In this document: positions 2,320 through 61,359 of the stretch, piece by piece
How the letters are laid out: each line of letters begins with the position of its first letter
Position numbering within the stretch: the first letter of the stretch is position 1
Assembly: GCA_023267215.1 (NCBI GenBank)
Contig: JAHFNS010000001.1
Location: 239,507 to 303,506, forward strand
DNA: 64,000 nt
Reading direction: 5' to 3'
DNA from: Candidatus Nomurabacteria bacterium
GTDB taxonomy: Bacteria > Patescibacteriota > Minisyncoccia > Phycocordibacterales > UBA9973
Notes under the pieces: model-generated
Seen by the model: the letters and a program-made list of their open reading frames with translations, nothing else
Told to the model about the DNA's origin: nothing
The model's database searches: none
Program-made: the position numbers and the translations under genes

Positions 2320-3621
2320 CTATTGTGTCGGAATTAATAATAATCCCATTTTTGCATTTCCGTCACTCATTGCTTCTGTTTGAGACAGACTACCAGAGAG
2401 AACTTTTTCAACCATTCCGCGAAAAATATCATCACTCTCTTTTGGAGACGGATCAAGCCAACTTCTGGCATAAAAAGCAGAAGTATAAAAAGCTGGAGAA
2501 TATGCATCAGTGGGCATGGTTTTAATTAAATCTCGACGAGCTGGGGCTATACCTAAAGAAGTAGAAAACTTAGAGGCAAAATCACCGTTGGCTAAAAGAC
2601 CTGCTGTGGTGAAAGCTGTATTAAAATTTTTAGAAAAAGAAGAAATAGCAATACCAATCACGTGGGCAAAAGTAAGCTTTAAATTACTATCTTTAATCTG
2701 AGGCATAGAAGTAACTAAGAAATTTTGATTTGGATTTTTGTTAACTAAAGATTGGAGTTCACTGGCAAAACCAAAGTAAAATGCTAAATTCTCTGCTGAG
2801 AAAGCATCGCGAGAGCTAGAAAAAGATTTATTCCAAGAGTAAACATTCTTTAATGGATCAGCAAAATCTGTAAAAAATTTTAAGACTGAACTTAGATCAT
2901 ATTTTCCATTAGTTTGATTTAAAGATGAAGTAAAAAAACCATTTTTCTCTGTAACGATAGGACTTCCCGCTTGCATAAAAAGAGTGCTCAAAATATCTTT
3001 AGCATAAAAAACATTAGAAAATTGACCCATAGCCACAGCACTTTTTATAATAGCACCCTTATCATCTTTCTTAGTTAAAAGTGGAACGAGGTTGGAAAAT
3101 TCATTCCAATCAGCTGGAGGATAAGCAATTCCATTTGCATCAAGCATACTTCTGTTGTAATACATCATCAATGGATCAACAGCAATAGGAAGGGCCACGA
3201 TTCCCTTCTCTGTTAAAAATACTTCTCCGGCTCCAATAAAACTATTTTTGAAAGTATTAACTGGAAGACTTGCATAAGGAATAGTAAAAATTTTATTACT
3301 ATATTTAAAAGCTAAACTATCTGTTATAAAAAACATATCTGGACCCGTGCCTGAAGCTAGAGCTTCTAATAAATCATTATCAAAAGTATTTATCGGTTTT
3401 TCAACATATTTCAGAATAAGAGTTGGATTAGCACGGTTAAAGTCATCGATTAAAGGACCAAGGATCGAAGCTTTTTCTGTGCCCCATAAAACTACAGTCC
3501 CTTGGGCTCCTGGGTTAGAATTACCCCCAATAGGAATAACTCCTGAAAAAACTAAAACACCCAAAATAGCAGCAGCAACAAATATAATTAAAACTATAAC
3601 TTGAAAATTTCCCTTTTTCAT
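2320..3621 (-). CDS. Extracellular solute-binding protein (ABC transporter family-1, sugar-type) with N-terminal membrane anchor
   Basis: 433 aa. N-terminal TM/signal segment, then a region with general resemblance to MalE/family-1 substrate-binding proteins (TVVLWGTEKA...DMFFITD...). Confidence 0.45.
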   Translation of the reverse strand: MKKGNFQVIVLIIFVAAAILGVLVFSGVIPIGGNSNPGAQGTVVLWGTEKASILGPLIDDFNRANPTLILKYVEKPINTFDNDLLEALASGTGPDMFFITDSLAFKYSNKIFTIPYASLPVNTFKNSFIGAGEVFLTEKGIVALPIAVDPLMMYYNRSMLDANGIAYPPADWNEFSNLVPLLTKKDDKGAIIKSAVAMGQFSNVFYAKDILSTLFMQAGSPIVTEKNGFFTSSLNQTNGKYDLSSVLKFFTDFADPLKNVYSWNKSFSSSRDAFSAENLAFYFGFASELQSLVNKNPNQNFLVTSMPQIKDSNLKLTFAHVIGIAISSFSKNFNTAFTTAGLLANGDFASKFSTSLGIAPARRDLIKTMPTDAYSPAFYTSAFYARSWLDPSPKESDDIFRGMVEKVLSGSLSQTEAMSDGNAKMGLLLIPTQ

Positions 3622-4141
3622 TTCTTTTTAAATATTATACCATAATGATGCTTTCCTGCATCTATTTCTTTTTGCCAAATAAAACCTTTTTCTTCAAACA
3701 TTTCTTTAGCTTTATCATTTGAAATTATTTTATGAAAACTAGAAGAAACGGCAACAGAATTATCCATCCAATCAATAAGCAAGAGCTTGCCACTTGGTTT
3801 AAGAATTCTTTTTATTTCTTCTATAAATTTATCTTTATTTTCAACTTGAAAAAGAATATTTGAAGCAATGGCTACATCTACAATATTATCTTTCAACTTA
3901 GTTCCACCTATTTTTTCAACATCTCCACAAATACATTCTATATTCTCTAAATGATTTTCTCTAGCTTTATTTCTGATGGTAGTAATAAAATCTTTTTGTA
4001 TTTCAATAGCATACACTTTGCCTTTGGCAACCATCTTAGCAGCTGGAATAGAATAAAAACCAGATCCTGCACCCAAATCCGCCACAATCATATTTTCCCC
4101 TAAACCAAAGAATTTTAAATTTTTTACTGGATCAGTAAACA
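3618..4141 (-). CDS. Class I SAM-dependent methyltransferase
   Basis: Motif I VADLGAGSGFYS. Start moved to MFTDPVKNLKF at 4141, because the longer ORF to 4316 would overlap the REP hairpin and the RAYT gene. Confidence 0.7.
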
Positions 4142-8492: not shown

Positions 8493-9137
8493 TTATATCG
8501 TTTTTAATACAATAACTTCTCCTTCTTTGCCATCTAAATCTTTTAATTTAAGTGTTAACTTATCTACTTTTTCAGCCTTTTCTTCACCCATTTCTTTTAG
8601 GAATATTTGTAAAGATTTTTCATCATAACTCATAGGTATAATCAATTTTGATTCGAACAACAAGGCAAGCTTTGCAGCTTCTTTGGGATCAATTAAGCTT
8701 ACTTCTTTAGAATAATTTTTCCCACCAATTGGAACAAAAAGAATATCTGGACTATCTATCACCTCTTGGGCTTCTTTGGAAAGTTCAGGATTTGATAATG
8801 CACCCAAAAATGCAACTTTAATATTATCTAATGTAAACGAATAAATAGTATTAATATAATTTTCATTAGAAACTAAAGCATTTGACATCGCACCTTTAAT
8901 AAAAATTTCTTTCACTTCGTAATCTCCAGGACCAGAAATGACAAATGGCATGCGCTCACCATGAGAAAGCTGTTCTACTCCATTATACAAAGAATGATTG
9001 GTAGTCACCAATGCAATATCCGCACCAAAATGTGAAGAAACATCAGATTTTGCATTTTTACTAACAGGATTAAAAGCAAGGACCATGTCCCCTTGTGTCA
9101 TCTTAAAAAATTGTTCACCAAAATATGTGATTATCAT
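8493..9137 (-). CDS. MBL-fold metal-dependent hydrolase (UPF0173-like)
   Basis: MIITYFGEQFF start is typical of UPF0173/MBL-fold hydrolases. Start placed at 9137 because the track start (GTG at 9182) lies inside the GC-rich palindromic repeat. Confidence 0.5.
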   Translation of the reverse strand: MIITYFGEQFFKMTQGDMVLAFNPVSKNAKSDVSSHFGADIALVTTNHSLYNGVEQLSHGERMPFVISGPGDYEVKEIFIKGAMSNALVSNENYINTIYSFTLDNIKVAFLGALSNPELSKEAQEVIDSPDILFVPIGGKNYSKEVSLIDPKEAAKLALLFESKLIIPMSYDEKSLQIFLKEMGEEKAEKVDKLTLKLKDLDGKEGEVIVLKTI

Positions 9138-9177
9138 TGTATCTATTATACCAAATAAGGATAGAAAAACAAATATC

Positions 9178-9284
9178 CTCACCCCTTAATCCCCTCTCCA
9201 AGCAAGCTTAGAGAGGGGAAAAATACGTGAGCACCCCCTCTCTAAAATTTTAATTTTGGAGAGGGGGCAGGGGGGTGAGGAGGT
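9178..9284. repeat. GC-rich compound palindromic repeat, copy A (CCTCACCCC...CCCCTCTCC...GGAGAGGGG...GGGGTGAGG family)
   Basis: Nested inverted repeats cccctctc/gagagggg and ccccctctc/gagaggggg, bounded by cctcacccc/ggggtgagg. GC content is far above the flanks. Confidence 0.8.
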
Positions 9285-9420
9285 TGCATTTTTTAATTTT
9301 TTGTATTAATATAAACCCTAATATATTAAAAGCATGGATTTAGGGTAACCTTTCGATTTCGGTCGAAAAACCTAAGCCTTATATCCGCTTTAGGGCGGAT
9401 TTTTAATTTTAAGTAACATT

Positions 9421-18868: not shown

Positions 18869-19741
18869 TCATAATAATACGTTATCAAAAATATGCTCAA
18901 TGACTTGATGCATATTCGTACCCACTAAACCACAAACTTGTGAAAGATGTGACTCTGGTTTCAGATCTGGAATCATCTCAAAATTTAACAAATATACCTT
19001 ATTTCTTTTATCTAAAATAAAATCTAATTTTAGATAATGCCGAACTCCCATATTCATATGTAATTTTTGGGCAATATTAATTAACTTTTCTTTCTCAGAA
19101 GAAGTAAAAGTACCAAAAGTATTTCCAAATGGAAAAGTGTATAAATTTTCCCCTCTAAAAAATGGCACCAAATGAAGAGAGGCTACTTTCCCTTCTATAA
19201 ATTCTTCAACTAAAATGTTTTTTTGATCTCTTGTTGTATTATCAAACACTTCCACTAATTCAGGAAAAGTCTTTATTAATTTAATTTCATTATTAATTTT
19301 TACAACCCAAGGTGAAGAAAATCTTTTAAAAACTTCTTGTGCATTTTTGGGAGAGACTATACATCTAGGCATTTTTATTCCCATCTTTTTAATTTTTTCC
19401 TGAAATTTTTCTTTGCTAATTTCAAAAAAAGGAGAAAAAGCCGGAATCCCAATATTTTTTATAGAATGACTTTCAAGAATATTAGAAAATCTTTGATGGG
19501 ACAAATTCCAAACCATATCTACCTTATATAATAATTTCATTGGTTCTATGGGCAAACCATTTAAATGCCAATTCCCTTCTTTATCTATCAAAATATCAAA
19601 AGGTTTATATTTATGAGATAAGTTTTCCAAAATATAAGAAATTATCTCCCCTCCTTTACGTAAAGAAGATTCGTAATGTTCATAATCACCTCCCCGCAAG
19701 ATACCTATACGTATTTTATCTTTTTCTTTTTTTTCTGGCAT
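18869..19741 (-). CDS. ddl: D-alanine--D-alanine ligase-like ATP-grasp enzyme
   Basis: N-terminal KIRIGILRGGDYEHYESSL resembles Ddl's KIRVGVLFGGRSAEHEVSL. Central VVKINNE and EEFIEGKVASLHLV are ATP-grasp patterns. Confidence 0.65.
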   Translation of the reverse strand: MPEKKEKDKIRIGILRGGDYEHYESSLRKGGEIISYILENLSHKYKPFDILIDKEGNWHLNGLPIEPMKLLYKVDMVWNLSHQRFSNILESHSIKNIGIPAFSPFFEISKEKFQEKIKKMGIKMPRCIVSPKNAQEVFKRFSSPWVVKINNEIKLIKTFPELVEVFDNTTRDQKNILVEEFIEGKVASLHLVPFFRGENLYTFPFGNTFGTFTSSEKEKLINIAQKLHMNMGVRHYLKLDFILDKRNKVYLLNFEMIPDLKPESHLSQVCGLVGTNMHQVIEHIFDNVLL

Positions 19742-19800
19742 CTAAATATTATAACACAGCTCAGCATTCTCCAGATTACATTTCATAATTAATCTTTTAG

Positions 19801-19850
19801 GCACCTCACCCCCTTACCCCCTCTCCAGATTACTGGCGAGGGGGTTTCGT
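19801..19850. repeat. GC-rich palindromic repeat, partial copy B
   Basis: GCACCTCACCCCCTTACCCCCTCTCC...GAGGGGG, immediately upstream of the DUF559 gene. Confidence 0.7.
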
Positions 19851-19864
19851 TATATAATTATTTA

Positions 19865-20218
19865 GTGACTCAATTTAAAACAATAATTAAAACTATATAT
19901 CTAAGAAAAAAAGAAACAAAAGCAGAAAAAATACTCTGGCAGGAATTAAGAAATAGCAATCTTGGTATAAAGTTTAGAAGACAATATCCTATTGATATGT
20001 ATATTCTTGATTTTTATGCACCTAAAATAAGACTTTCTATAGAACTTGATGGTTCTATCCATAAGCTAAAAGAAACTAAAGAATATGACGTAGAAAGAAG
20101 AATGTATTTAGAATCTAAATATATTTATGAATTAAGGTTTTGGAATTCTGAAATAGAGAATAATTTAAATTCAGTTTTAAACAAAATTAAAACAAAAATT
20201 AAAGAATTACATCACTAA
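19865..20218 (+). CDS. DUF559 (Vsr-like / PD-(D/E)xK endonuclease-like) domain protein
   Basis: TKAEKILWQELRN...GIKFRRQYPI..YILDFY...LSIELDGSIH...D.ERR..L...G..ELRFWNSEI matches the DUF559 consensus almost position by position. Confidence 0.75.
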   Translation: MTQFKTIIKTIYLRKKETKAEKILWQELRNSNLGIKFRRQYPIDMYILDFYAPKIRLSIELDGSIHKLKETKEYDVERRMYLESKYIYELRFWNSEIENNLNSVLNKIKTKIKELHH

Positions 20219-20220
20219 AA

Positions 20221-20347
20221 TGCACCTCACCCCTTCCCCGCTCCATTTTAATAAAATGGAGCGGGGTTGATGCGAAGCAGACGGGGTGAGGTGCATTTTT
20301 CTCCCCTCTCTGGTACTCCGGAGAGGGGGCAGGGGGTGAGGTGTATT
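20221..20347. repeat. GC-rich palindromic repeat, double copy C
   Basis: First, the 75-nt near-perfect palindrome TGCACCTCACCCC-TTCCCCGCTCC...GGAGCGGGG...GGGGTGAGGTGCA. Then CTCCCCTCTC...GGAGAGGGGGCAGGGGGTGAGGTG. Confidence 0.8.
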
Positions 20348-20349
20348 AA

Positions 20350-20658
20350 CTATTTTTTCCTAAATTTGGAATCAATTAATTTATAAACAGTTATAATAAA
20401 ATAAGGAATTATAAGTGCAAATAAATATTCCTCAAGTGGCATTAAACCTATATGTACCCCAAGTATACCCCCCCCTGGAAAAGACCAATGGCCACGCCAA
20501 ATTGCAAATGAATCCCAAATAACACCAAAAAGAAAGAAGAACCCAACAATCTCAAATCTTTCTTTTCTAGATTTGTAAAGATGAATGTGTTTCTTGTTCT
20601 CTAAAAATAAAGCAATAAAAAGTAAAATAATAAGAATTGTTAAATATTCAAAAGACAT
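20350..20658 (-). CDS. Small polytopic membrane protein, possibly lycopene-cyclase-domain (CrtYcd-like) family
   Basis: About 102 aa with three hydrophobic helices. GVHIGLMPLEEYLFALIIPY resembles the G..iPiEE..fF motif. Start set at the internal Met (MSFEYL), because the track start at 20694 lies inside a terminator hairpin. Confidence 0.35.
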   Translation of the reverse strand: MSFEYLTILIILLFIALFLENKKHIHLYKSRKERFEIVGFFFLFGVIWDSFAIWRGHWSFPGGGILGVHIGLMPLEEYLFALIIPYFIITVYKLIDSKFRKK

Positions 20659-20677
20659 ACTTTTATTATAACAAAAA

Positions 20678-20708
20678 ACACCTCGTGTTTCCACGAGGTG
20701 TTTTTTTT
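20678..20708. terminator. Bidirectional rho-independent terminator 3' of the 16S rRNA gene
   Basis: AAAAAACACCTCGTG-TTTC-CACGAGGTG-TTTTTTTT: 9-bp GC-rich stem with an A-run upstream and a T-run downstream. Confidence 0.7.
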
Positions 20709-20979: not shown

Positions 20980-22600
<1,621 letters not shown>

Positions 22601-27033: not shown

Positions 27034-27079
27034 CCACCTCTCCTTGTAAAGGAGAGGGGGCTAGGGGGTGAGGTGAATT
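27034..27079. repeat. GC-rich palindromic repeat, partial copy E
   Basis: CCACCTCTCCTTGTAAAGGAGAGGGGGCTAGGGGGTGAGGTG. Preceded at 26974-27010 by the hairpin CCCCCTTGTCAGGGGG plus a T-run. Confidence 0.7.
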
Positions 27080-34059: not shown

Positions 34060-34149
34060 TGTTTTATTATAACAATTTTGTTATCCACAGTAAAAATTGA
34101 CAGATACTAGAGAAAGCATAAAATGAAAGAGTTCATTAAAAAGTTATAG

Positions 34150-34288
34150 TAAGTGATTGGGGAAACTGGTTAGATTCCAGTACAGTGCCGCTACGGTAAG
34201 TCCTGAACACCAATAGGTGGAAGGAACAAGTCCGATTACCAATCATTTTTATGAATCCCGAGCAGGACTAAGCCATTTTGAAGGCCCA
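34150..34288 (+). promoter_or_regulatory. Cobalamin (B12) riboswitch aptamer
   Basis: GGGAAACTGGTTAGATTCCAGTACAGTGCCGCTACGGTAAGTCC...GGAAGGAAC parallels the cobalamin-riboswitch core GGGAAnCCGGTGAAAATCCGGnnCnGnCCCGCCACTGTAA...GGAAGG, including a variant B12 box (GCCGCTACGG). Confidence 0.7.
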
Positions 34289-41009: not shown

Positions 41010-41078
41010 TACCTCACCCCAGCTTGCTAGCTTTCCCCTCTCCTTATTAAGGAGAGGGGTCAGGGGTGAGGTGAATTT
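41010..41078. repeat. GC-rich palindromic repeat, copy F
   Basis: ACCTCACCCC-AGCTTGCTAGCTT-TCCCCTCTCCTTATTAAGGAGAGGGGTCAGGGGTGAGGTG. Confidence 0.8.
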
Positions 41079-61140: not shown

Positions 61141-61252
61141 AGCCCACCACTTAGGTGAAGGCTTTCGCCTTCCATACCGGTTTCCCGATACGGTCTGTCA
61201 GACAACCCCAAATGATGGGTTTTTTATGTCTGACAGAACTTCATTCACCATG
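61141..61252 (+). other. GC-rich structured intergenic element with embedded intrinsic terminator (candidate small RNA)
   Basis: Hairpins GGTGAAGGCTTTCGCCTTCCA and ACCGGTTTCCCGATACGGT. A 10-bp stem TCTGTCAGAC/GTCTGACAGA encloses AACCCCAAATGATGGGGTTTTTT. Confidence 0.3.
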
Positions 61253-61359
61253 CCTTTATTTCTAAAGGTTTAGGCTACTTTTAATATATTTAATTGTGTT
61301 TACATCATAACGCATAAAAGCCCTTTTGTTAAGGGGAGCATGATCAAATCAACCAGTAT

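Follow-up and report, generated by a model that had tools for sequence, protein, structure and literature searches.

A Vsr-like DUF559 nuclease gene enclosed by inverted triplex-motif repeats: a putative mobile cassette in Candidatus Nomurabacteria and other bacteria

In the partnership between repetitive extragenic palindromes (REPs) and REP-associated tyrosine transposases (RAYTs), a nuclease encoded by a single gene is flanked by inverted copies of the dispersed palindromic repeat of its genome. RAYT genes sit on chromosomes, pass mostly from parent to offspring and evolve under purifying selection, and REPs far exceed them in number. They are HUH/Y1 enzymes of the IS200/IS605 type, which act on single-stranded hairpins, and the REP carries a GTAG/CGTC tag. 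Here we describe an arrangement that resembles this one, built from a DUF559 gene and repeats of the BoxC/PIT/triplex-motif type. It was found in a 64,000-nucleotide stretch of contig JAHFNS010000001.1 from a Candidatus Nomurabacteria bacterium (assembly GCA_023267215.1), which is called the window below and is AT-rich (about 32% GC). To our knowledge, BoxC/PIT/triplex-motif repeats, known since the 1990s, have no known origin, function or associated protein, and DUF559 is a very large family with a solved structure and no known role.

In Escherichia coli the triplex motif is called TMECO, for example CCCTCTCCCTGTGGGAGAGGGCCGGGGTGAGGGC, and is the element earlier named BoxC or PIT (Holder et al. 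2015, NAR 43:10126, PMC4666352). There are 23 copies in K-12, and over 260 genomes contain the motif. Circular dichroism and NMR showed that the E. coli sequence folds into an intrastrand triplex in vitro; the motif is without promoter or terminator activity. The sites at which it occurs are linked to local rearrangement, more so than control intergenic DNA. The genes beside triplex motifs have no consensus function, and a transposase or integrase was never found nearby (Holder et al. 2015, PMC4666352).

The sequences compared here show that the DUF559 gene and its triplex-motif ends form a conserved cassette of about 0.45-0.55 kb. In the window the whole span is 19801-20343. Its two ends are mutually inverted with their arms outermost, and it thus has the anatomy of a single element bounded by terminal inverted repeats. 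The features are as follows.

About 19755-19800, + strand: degenerate second left end, with the remnant of an arm, the 5' half of the hairpin (TCTCCAGATTAC) and a promoter-like stretch, as read from the sequence
19801-19845, + strand: cassette left end, with C-rich arm GCACCTCACCCC, spacer and GC hairpin CCCCCTCTCCAG/CTGGCGAGGGGG carrying one fixed T.C mismatch
19853-19858, + strand: TATAAT box, putative -10 element, 6 nt before the GTG
19865-20218, + strand: DUF559 gene, GTG start, 117 amino acids, Vsr-like PD-(D/E)xK nuclease family by Pfam match
20217-20299, no strand assigned: unit C1, a complete unit without an open reading frame (ORF), in which a hairpin (CCCCGCTCC variant) and the conserved spacer TTGATGCGAAGCAGAC lie between two opposed arms
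20303-20343, + strand: cassette right end (C2), with hairpin CCCCTCTCTGG-TACT-CCGGAGAGGGG, spacer GCA and G-rich arm GGGGGTGAGGTG

The original prediction, made from the window alone, was that the 117-amino-acid DUF559 ORF is flanked by repeats on both sides. This is confirmed: the protein matches PF04480 (DUF559) at 103.2 bits (cut-off 20.6, E=9.3e-30), and the hairpins and arms can be read directly. The upstream arm CACCTCACCCC occupies 19802-19812, followed by the hairpin CCCCCTCTCCAG-ATTA-CTGGCGAGGGGG at 19816-19845 (-12.7 kcal/mol, z=-3.9). The upstream copy is therefore present as predicted, but its hairpin ends 19 nt before the GTG and not 15. The downstream copy is double, as stated (C1 and C2), but its description as a near-perfect palindrome was slightly generous. 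C1 is an imperfect palindrome of 83 nt, with a 17-bp outer stem, a 14-bp inner hairpin and a 16-nt asymmetric insert TTGATGCGAAGCAGAC, and it folds at -36.7 kcal/mol (z=-12.3). In C2 the hairpin lies at 20303-20328 and the arm GGGGGTGAGGTG at 20332-20343. With at most one mismatch allowed, the CACCTCACCCC 11-mer is expected 0.25 times in the window and is found 10 times, a number reached in 0 of 100 shuffles. The cassette contains no other ORF.

Three features had been missed: the inverted, outward-armed ends, the third G-rich block of the motif (described below), and the degenerate second left end. The last of these aligns to the intact left end of L001, and TCTCCAGATTAC is present twice, at 19768 and 19822. 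(Labels of the type L001 denote loci from genomes that carry a homologue; L081 is E. coli K-12.) The C1 type of unit, with its GATGCGAAGCAGAC spacer, is also found in L001, L017, L019 and L092; since this spacer recurs in several species, C1 is, judging by its sequence, a propagated subfamily.

When the left ends of 19 cassettes are aligned, a conserved TA-rich, -10-like box is seen 6-10 nt ahead of the start codon, and the aligned cassettes lack a Shine-Dalgarno sequence. Together these suggest that the TATAAT-like box is an internal promoter belonging to the cassette, and that it gives a leaderless mRNA. A consensus promoter scan did not flag the TATAAT before the GTG because a -35 element is absent, and the promoter thus remains an inference. 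A terminator scan found none in or after the cassette.

By its sequence the window repeat belongs to the BoxC/PIT/TMECO triplex-motif family. It has three blocks: CCCCTCTCC, a loop, GGAGAGGGG, a spacer of 2-4 nt, and GGGGTGAGG. The hairpin reads C-rich to G-rich on both strands, and the third block mirrors its purine strand, with T replacing one A. A typical window copy, CCCCTCTCC-TTATTAA-GGAGAGGGG-TCA-GGGGTGAGGTG, can be set beside E. coli CCCTCTCCC-TGT-GGGAGAGGG-CC-GGGGTGAGGGC: in both, the order is C-rich hairpin strand, loop, purine strand, 2-4 nt spacer and G-rich mirror. The hairpin and G-rich mirror block are visible in all window copies, which are close to those in Table 1 of Holder et al. 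(2015). As in E. coli, the repeats are multicopy and intergenic, occur singly or in inverted pairs, include the same fixed-position mismatch subtype, and are associated with local rearrangement. Two differences are seen. The literature treats these elements as orphan repeats, whereas here they are the two ends of a DUF559 gene cassette; and among the seven repeat sites in the 64 kb of the window, which are otherwise all intergenic, one copy lies within the 16S rRNA gene.

The mismatch subtype arises when GGCGAGGGG replaces GGAGAGGGG as the 3' strand of the hairpin, as it often does, which leaves a fixed position of the stem mismatched (G.A or T.C). GGCGAGGGG is the dominant internal variant, present in 17 of 137 metagenome left ends, where any other internal variant is found at most 3 times; it is also common in left ends from the Candidate Phyla Radiation (CPR). 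It corresponds to the 'mm' types, which are the majority of E. coli copies (Table 1 of Holder et al. 2015, PMC4666352). A mismatch of this kind exists only in the extruded or single-stranded form, and its recurrence is a hint that such a form is recognised. We speculate that the hairpin form itself, extruded or single-stranded, is what is recognised. Equally speculatively, it may be observed beside this that DUF559 shares the fold of a mismatch-nicking enzyme.

The association was then followed across genomes. An alignment of 39 homologues was scanned against species-representative genomes, giving 587 confirmed DUF559 loci; the analysis used the best 80 of these, 20 of them from CPR bacteria (55-87% identity). 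An arm was scored where CTCACCC occurred in the 200 nt before, or GGGTGAG in the 200 nt after, the DUF559 ORF. The upstream arm is present in 18 of the 20 CPR loci (31/80 overall) and the downstream arm in 16 of the 20 (35/80 overall), and one further CPR locus has an arm with one mismatch. Control ORFs, defined as other ORFs of at least 100 amino acids in the same loci, are flanked far less often, in CPR loci 2/45 upstream and 0/45 downstream, in the others 1/88 and 2/88, with both ends in none. The first check set by the original prediction, on other DUF559 genes, does not refute it: they are repeat-flanked. Over the 80 loci the arms point outward rather than inward in 33 v 8 cases upstream and 37 v 17 downstream, with 27+35 in the far flanks (about 400 kb) that served as background.

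The result does not depend on the particular letters of the motif. A sequence-agnostic test, which looked for a GC hairpin with a mirror-symmetric third strand, found 30 left-type v 10 right-type motifs upstream, and 24 right-type v 10 left-type downstream. The background is 34/319 in the far flanks, and the signal is above that of shuffled flanks. GC-rich hairpins occur at 4.6 per kb beside DUF559 and 0.87 per kb elsewhere. Distances from left to right end are bimodal, with 19 pairs at 250 nt or less and 17 pairs at 450-550 nt; DUF559 is enclosed in every one of the latter, so that the element is of uniform size. Lineage-specific variants of the motif flank DUF559 in Deinococcus, Bacteroidota, Elusimicrobia, Nitrospirota and proteobacterial metagenome-assembled genomes. 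The gene is also flanked in Neisseria gonorrhoeae (the source of DUF559 structure 3HRL), Deinococcus aetherius, Picosynechococcus PCC 7002 and Pseudanabaena. The Bacteroidota loci with different repeat variants are all about 43-53% identical to the query, and the 100-amino-acid protein gives no resolution among them.

These counts bear on the suggestion that the association is passive. Triplex-motif units would then be hot spots for recombination or insertion, or insulators, and DUF559 would be a small, frequently transferred nuclease gene that often lands or is kept there and does something unrelated, for instance restriction-like defence or mismatch nicking. The greater rearrangement at triplex-motif loci than in control intergenic DNA fits this (Holder et al. 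2015, PMC4666352), as do the coincidence of recombination breakpoints with the cassette end and a weak PADLOC match to a methyl-directed type II restriction enzyme. So too does the finding that, in phylogroups A, B1 and C, the interval from fabI to sapF holds ycjD, the E. coli DUF559 gene, instead of the eefRABCD operon (PMC12817139). However, a passive landing site is hard to reconcile with control ORFs that are almost never flanked, or with the constant orientation of the gene relative to the ends. No other cargo family was seen among the few end-to-end pairs longer than 250 nt, nearly all of which come from loci chosen for DUF559. The ends and the gene also appear to be one conserved unit across phyla, because the repeat abuts or overlaps the stop codon and the -10-like box follows the left hairpin. 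We consider a passive association distinctly unlikely.

In E. coli K-12 the gene and the repeat also adjoin. The stop codon of ycjD lies within a degenerate hairpin (CCCTCTCCC TGA AAGAGCGAGGGGG). Downstream (L081, NC_000913 1349500-1352500, locus 1705-1925) there is a duplicate of about 45 nt of the 3' coding end of ycjD, and then TMECO no. 9, oriented as in the window. From its sequence, this 3' fragment with TMECO no. 9 looks like the remnant of a second, deleted cassette.

The window contains four ORF-less units outside the cassette:

9177-9283, + strand: ORF-less double-hairpin unit, with arm, hairpin 1, 15-nt spacer, hairpin 2 and arm, between the gene at 8493-9182 (- strand) and rpsA
21361-21430, - strand: complete ORF-less unit within the 16S rRNA gene, immediately 5' of GGAGGAAGG, where an extended helix has its apex
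27034-27075, + strand: solitary right-type motif, hairpin plus GGGGGTGAGGTG, intergenic
41010-41073, - strand: single-hairpin unit without an ORF, intergenic, with an arm on each side and a stop codon 3 nt away

At the rpsA site, with orthologous flanks, DUF559 lies between the two hairpins in L004, L013, L015, L018, L019 and L020. In L008 the cassette is directly followed by a second unit, in which the final 12 nt of the ORF and the whole right end are retained. Sequence comparison therefore shows that at least some ORF-less units derive from cassettes, since L008 and E. coli retain fragments of the ORF end and the 9177-9283 site holds DUF559 in six relatives. Most metagenome copies of the repeat are solitary arm-plus-hairpin motifs. 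By analogy, one gene with many ORF-less copies is the pattern of a transposase and its miniature inverted-repeat transposable elements (MITEs), or of RAYT and REP.

Comparison of orthologous sites also shows presence/absence polymorphism of cassettes and units. The cassette is found at three or more chromosomal sites: between the Ddl-like gene and the 16S rRNA gene as in the window, upstream of rpsA, and between efp and recA in Paceibacteria (L202 9353-11484, and the downstream flanks of L007, L012 and L017). At the window's own site the relatives L001 and L002 have DUF559 with repeats, and not without them, and this second check does not refute the original prediction either. The pair P0033 and P0086, 99% identical and on one 18.7-kb contig, was considered as a recent intragenomic duplicate and rejected, as there is only one gene on the record and P0086 has none of its own; they are probably the same gene with a different start call.

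The divergence of the cassette differs from that of its left flank. Among the window, L001 and L002, synonymous divergence (dS) of DUF559 is 0.35-0.46, with third-position identity of 0.79-0.84, while dS is 1.07-1.65 for the adjacent Ddl gene and 1.23-2.53 for SecA. Nucleotide identity steps up at the cassette left end, from about 0.6 to about 0.9. On these sequences the cassette is younger than its left flank. The suggestion in the original prediction that the repeat and DUF559 form a small mobile cassette is supported by this low dS, by the uniform size of 450-550 bp, by the presence at three or more sites, by the occurrence of occupied and ORF-less versions of one site, and by a deleted copy in which the ORF end survives. 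The same prediction offered, as its alternative, a nuclease that would act on the palindromes.

A further explanation is that DUF559 is a domesticated housekeeping nuclease, which processes hairpin, cruciform or triplex DNA formed by the repeats, for example at stalled forks, and does not spread them; the gene would stay beside the repeats through shared history. PIT elements do block DNA polymerase in vitro, and triplex-motif sites are tied to genomic instability (Holder et al. 2015, PMC4666352). The gene is under purifying selection (dN/dS 0.14-0.16), has long been resident, apparently vertically, at fixed sites across genera and in very small CPR genomes, and is nearly absent from phages (2/50,697 records) and plasmids (37/72,556 records). 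Such a role nevertheless leaves unexplained why the gene is nested at fixed size between outward-armed inverted ends, why deleted cassettes with ORF fragments exist, and why the cassette is younger than its flank. In addition, E. coli lineages lacking ycjD exist (PMC12817139), and most TMECOs were placed at their loci in all 56 E. coli genomes compared by Holder et al. (2015), a set that may or may not include such lineages. We therefore regard domestication without spreading as unlikely.

The unit within the 16S rRNA gene raises the question of a role at the RNA level, in which the protein would bind or cleave hairpin units in transcripts, as in excision from 16S pre-rRNA or mRNA processing. 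Analogues would be rRNA intervening sequences and the DUF559-like proteins of apicomplexan mitoribosomes. In its favour, the unit lies at a helix apex; a fold search with the DUF559 protein returns Toxoplasma and Tetrahymena mitoribosomal proteins; and 23S rRNA intervening sequences that carry an ORF are known (PMC4990558). On the other hand, the unit is absent from the orthologous helix of L002, which has an AT-rich hairpin instead in a 16S gene whose flanking sequence is 94-97% identical, and yet L002 has DUF559 at the same locus. The left arm would be outside the mRNA, because the inferred promoter is within the left end. RNA does not adopt purine-type triplexes (Holder et al. 2015, PMC4666352), and the closest functional homologues are DNA endonucleases. 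An RNA-level role seems to us very improbable.

The window protein as query gave 1,111 DUF559 homologues, and the closest of them bear names of the Paceibacteria/Nomurabacteria group. Against NCBIfam PRK09767 (the YcjD family) it scores 74.5 bits (E=7e-21), under the equivalog cut-off of 218, and so it is a family member and not a YcjD equivalog. In the 39-sequence alignment D49, E60, D62 and H66 are invariant, together with several aromatic and basic residues, and all are retained in the window copy; the invariant E60-x-D62-G-x-x-H66 is read as the putative active site. Together with the low dN/dS, these residues speak for a functional protein. An AlphaFold2 model (pLDDT 82) matches 3HRL (Foldseek E=3.6e-7, TM 0.73/0.89), which bears out the earlier assignment to the PD-(D/E)xK Vsr/restriction-endonuclease-like fold. 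The next-closest solved structure is the catalytic domain of the homing endonuclease I-Bth0305I (3R3P; Foldseek E=2.2e-4, TM 0.58/0.67, profile E=0.0035), a remote homologue at 22-24% identity. Weaker fold matches are to the Toxoplasma and Tetrahymena mitoribosomal proteins (E about 0.01), PvuRts1I, Vsr and TnsA, and there are weak PHROG matches to phage homing-endonuclease families. The mitoribosomal matches suggest, from the modelled structure, that the fold may be usable for RNA binding.

Phage or plasmid carriage was considered as a vehicle for transfer and rejected, given the near-absence from phages and the fact that the plasmid matches are mostly chromids or mislabelled chromosomes. Membership of an anti-phage defence system was rejected because PADLOC matches are only weak. 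In the window copy KARYLR has become KTIYLR, which may represent early functional decay or altered specificity. Gene calls often run into the repeats: the N-terminal 'MARGEVRYYYK' passes through the left hairpin (P0033; L202 9975-10040), and the C-terminal tails SPL, PPL, APRQ and LTPSPSPK of aligned DUF559 proteins run into the right hairpin. By our reading such extensions are annotation artefacts, and the cassette ends account for them.

How, then, might such a cassette spread? We lean towards the view that the nuclease has its own repeat as its target, and that recombination-dependent copying follows from breaks made there, in a homing-like or RAYT-like manner. The action on the repeat, the position of the cut and the recombination-dependent spread are all inferred. 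The nuclease would recognise its repeat either as the palindromic hairpin site of about 26 bp or as a hairpin/triplex in extruded or single-stranded form, and would nick or cut there; the fixed G.A/T.C mismatch may be the point recognised. By host homologous repair, other sites that bear the repeat, and related genomes, would then receive copies of the cassette or of its derivatives lacking the ORF. Internal deletion would yield MITE-like minimal units, persisting in large excess.

By analogy, the logic resembles that of a homing-endonuclease gene or of the REP/RAYT partnership, with another enzyme and another repeat. As with RAYT, the window DUF559 gene is flanked by inverted copies of its own genome's dispersed palindromic repeat, is chromosomal, for the most part vertically inherited and under purifying selection, and is far outnumbered by the repeats. 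It differs in that DUF559 is a PD-(D/E)xK Vsr-like protein and not HUH/Y1, with no known strand-transfer chemistry, and the repeat is a hairpin plus a mirror third strand. As DUF559 is not an HUH/Y1 transposase, the cassette is an analogue of REP/RAYT and not a member. I-Bth0305I offers a second comparison. It too is a selfish nuclease gene, and presence or absence at orthologous sites is common to both; the discordance in dS between the cassette and its flank is what homing with co-conversion would be expected to produce. However, 3R3P was deposited as a 'mobile intron protein', while the DUF559 cassette is free-standing, intergenic and chromosomal, and does not reside in an intron, intein or phage genome as homing genes do; it is bounded by structured inverted repeats and leaves MITE-like derivatives.

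Compared with insertion sequences and their MITEs, the cassette has similar terminal inverted repeats, of about 45 bp, and ORF-less internal-deletion derivatives that outnumber the full element. It differs in lacking a transposase of known class, in showing no target-site duplication in the aligned ends, and in having ends that are structured motifs also occurring singly. Vsr (PF03852) is of the same fold superfamily and has a related acidic/histidine motif, and some sources annotate DUF559 proteins as 'very-short-patch-repair endonuclease'. Nevertheless, Pfam assigns DUF559 and not Vsr, the Foldseek match to 1VSR is weak (E=0.18), and no cytosine-5 methyltransferase gene is among the neighbours, which are a Ddl-like ATP-grasp gene and a lycopene-cyclase-domain gene.

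We put forward more tentatively, as a possibility that we would rate somewhat below even, that DUF559 with triplex-motif ends is a new class of autonomous selfish element, the source and mobiliser of the BoxC/PIT/triplex-motif repeats, and a second REP/RAYT-like partnership. If so, a Vsr-like nuclease of about 115 amino acids would recognise structure-forming ends, a hairpin or triplex with a fixed mismatch, and copy itself via host repair; the K-12 pair would be ycjD and the 23 TMECOs, and the partnership would be built on chemistry unlike that of RAYT.

Several observations weigh against the proposed mechanism. A PD-(D/E)xK nuclease cannot by itself transpose DNA. Aligned ends show no consistent direct repeat outside the arms that would mark a target-site duplication. 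Of the 80 DUF559 loci, 14 have a GC hairpin on neither side. The association is weak when the search is made from the repeat side: in a scan of metagenome contigs for the left-end pattern, DUF559 is nearby in only 4 of the 120 loci examined, and in E. coli 1 of the 23 motifs is linked to DUF559. Between the window and L001 the lycopene-cyclase-domain gene also has low dS (0.36), so the exchange could be a larger, ordinary recombination tract that ends at the repeat and is not driven by the cassette. The rpsA site was tried as a second case of dS discordance and was uninformative: DUF559 and rpsA are both saturated at synonymous sites, which implies that residence there is old and apparently vertical, and that movement, if any, is rare. 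A domesticated function accounts for the long-term purifying selection at fixed sites no less well than a purely selfish one. The window copy has A10T and R11I at nearly invariant positions (Ala-Arg in at least 90% of the 39). Finally, Holder et al. (2015, PMC4666352) obtained no evidence that the triplex forms stably in vivo.

If the link between DUF559 and its repeats is functional, it provides a candidate explanation for each of two orphans, the DUF559 family and the BoxC/PIT/triplex-motif repeats, and it would be a second case of a nuclease gene partnered with its own dispersed palindromic repeat. It may also explain the genomic instability reported at these repeats. The link is directly testable in E. 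coli K-12, which holds both ycjD and 23 TMECO copies. Independently of this, repeat units are able to sit within rRNA genes of CPR bacteria. No earlier description of a link between DUF559 and the repeats was found in the openly accessible literature that was searched.

Some further observations concern the surroundings. To the left of the cassette is the Ddl-like ATP-grasp gene (18869-19741, - strand); to the right is the gene for a lycopene-cyclase-domain membrane protein (20350-20694, - strand), and beyond this the 16S rRNA gene (20982-22599, - strand). The Ddl-like protein is 43-52% identical to those of L001 and L002, where 16S rRNA is about 95% and SecA 86-88% identical; the gene is unusually fast-evolving or has been replaced. 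In L001 the lycopene-cyclase-domain gene (3443-3785) aligns in two pieces, 25 nt apart against 24 expected, which suggests a frameshift or a sequencing error.

Upstream of rpsA, at 9327-9405, there is a non-coding motif TTAAAAGCATGGATTTAGGGTAACC ... AACCTAAGCC, with a terminator-like hairpin (CCGCTTTAGGGCGG) after it. Four genomes (the window, L004, L019 and L020) share this conserved motif, which has no Rfam match at gathering score and from its sequence may be an S1 leader or autoregulatory element. Elsewhere in the window there is a LOOT RNA match (85 bits) at 61157-61276 on the - strand, and a match to a cobalamin riboswitch at 34125-34261 on the + strand, which at 34 bits is just above the gathering score.

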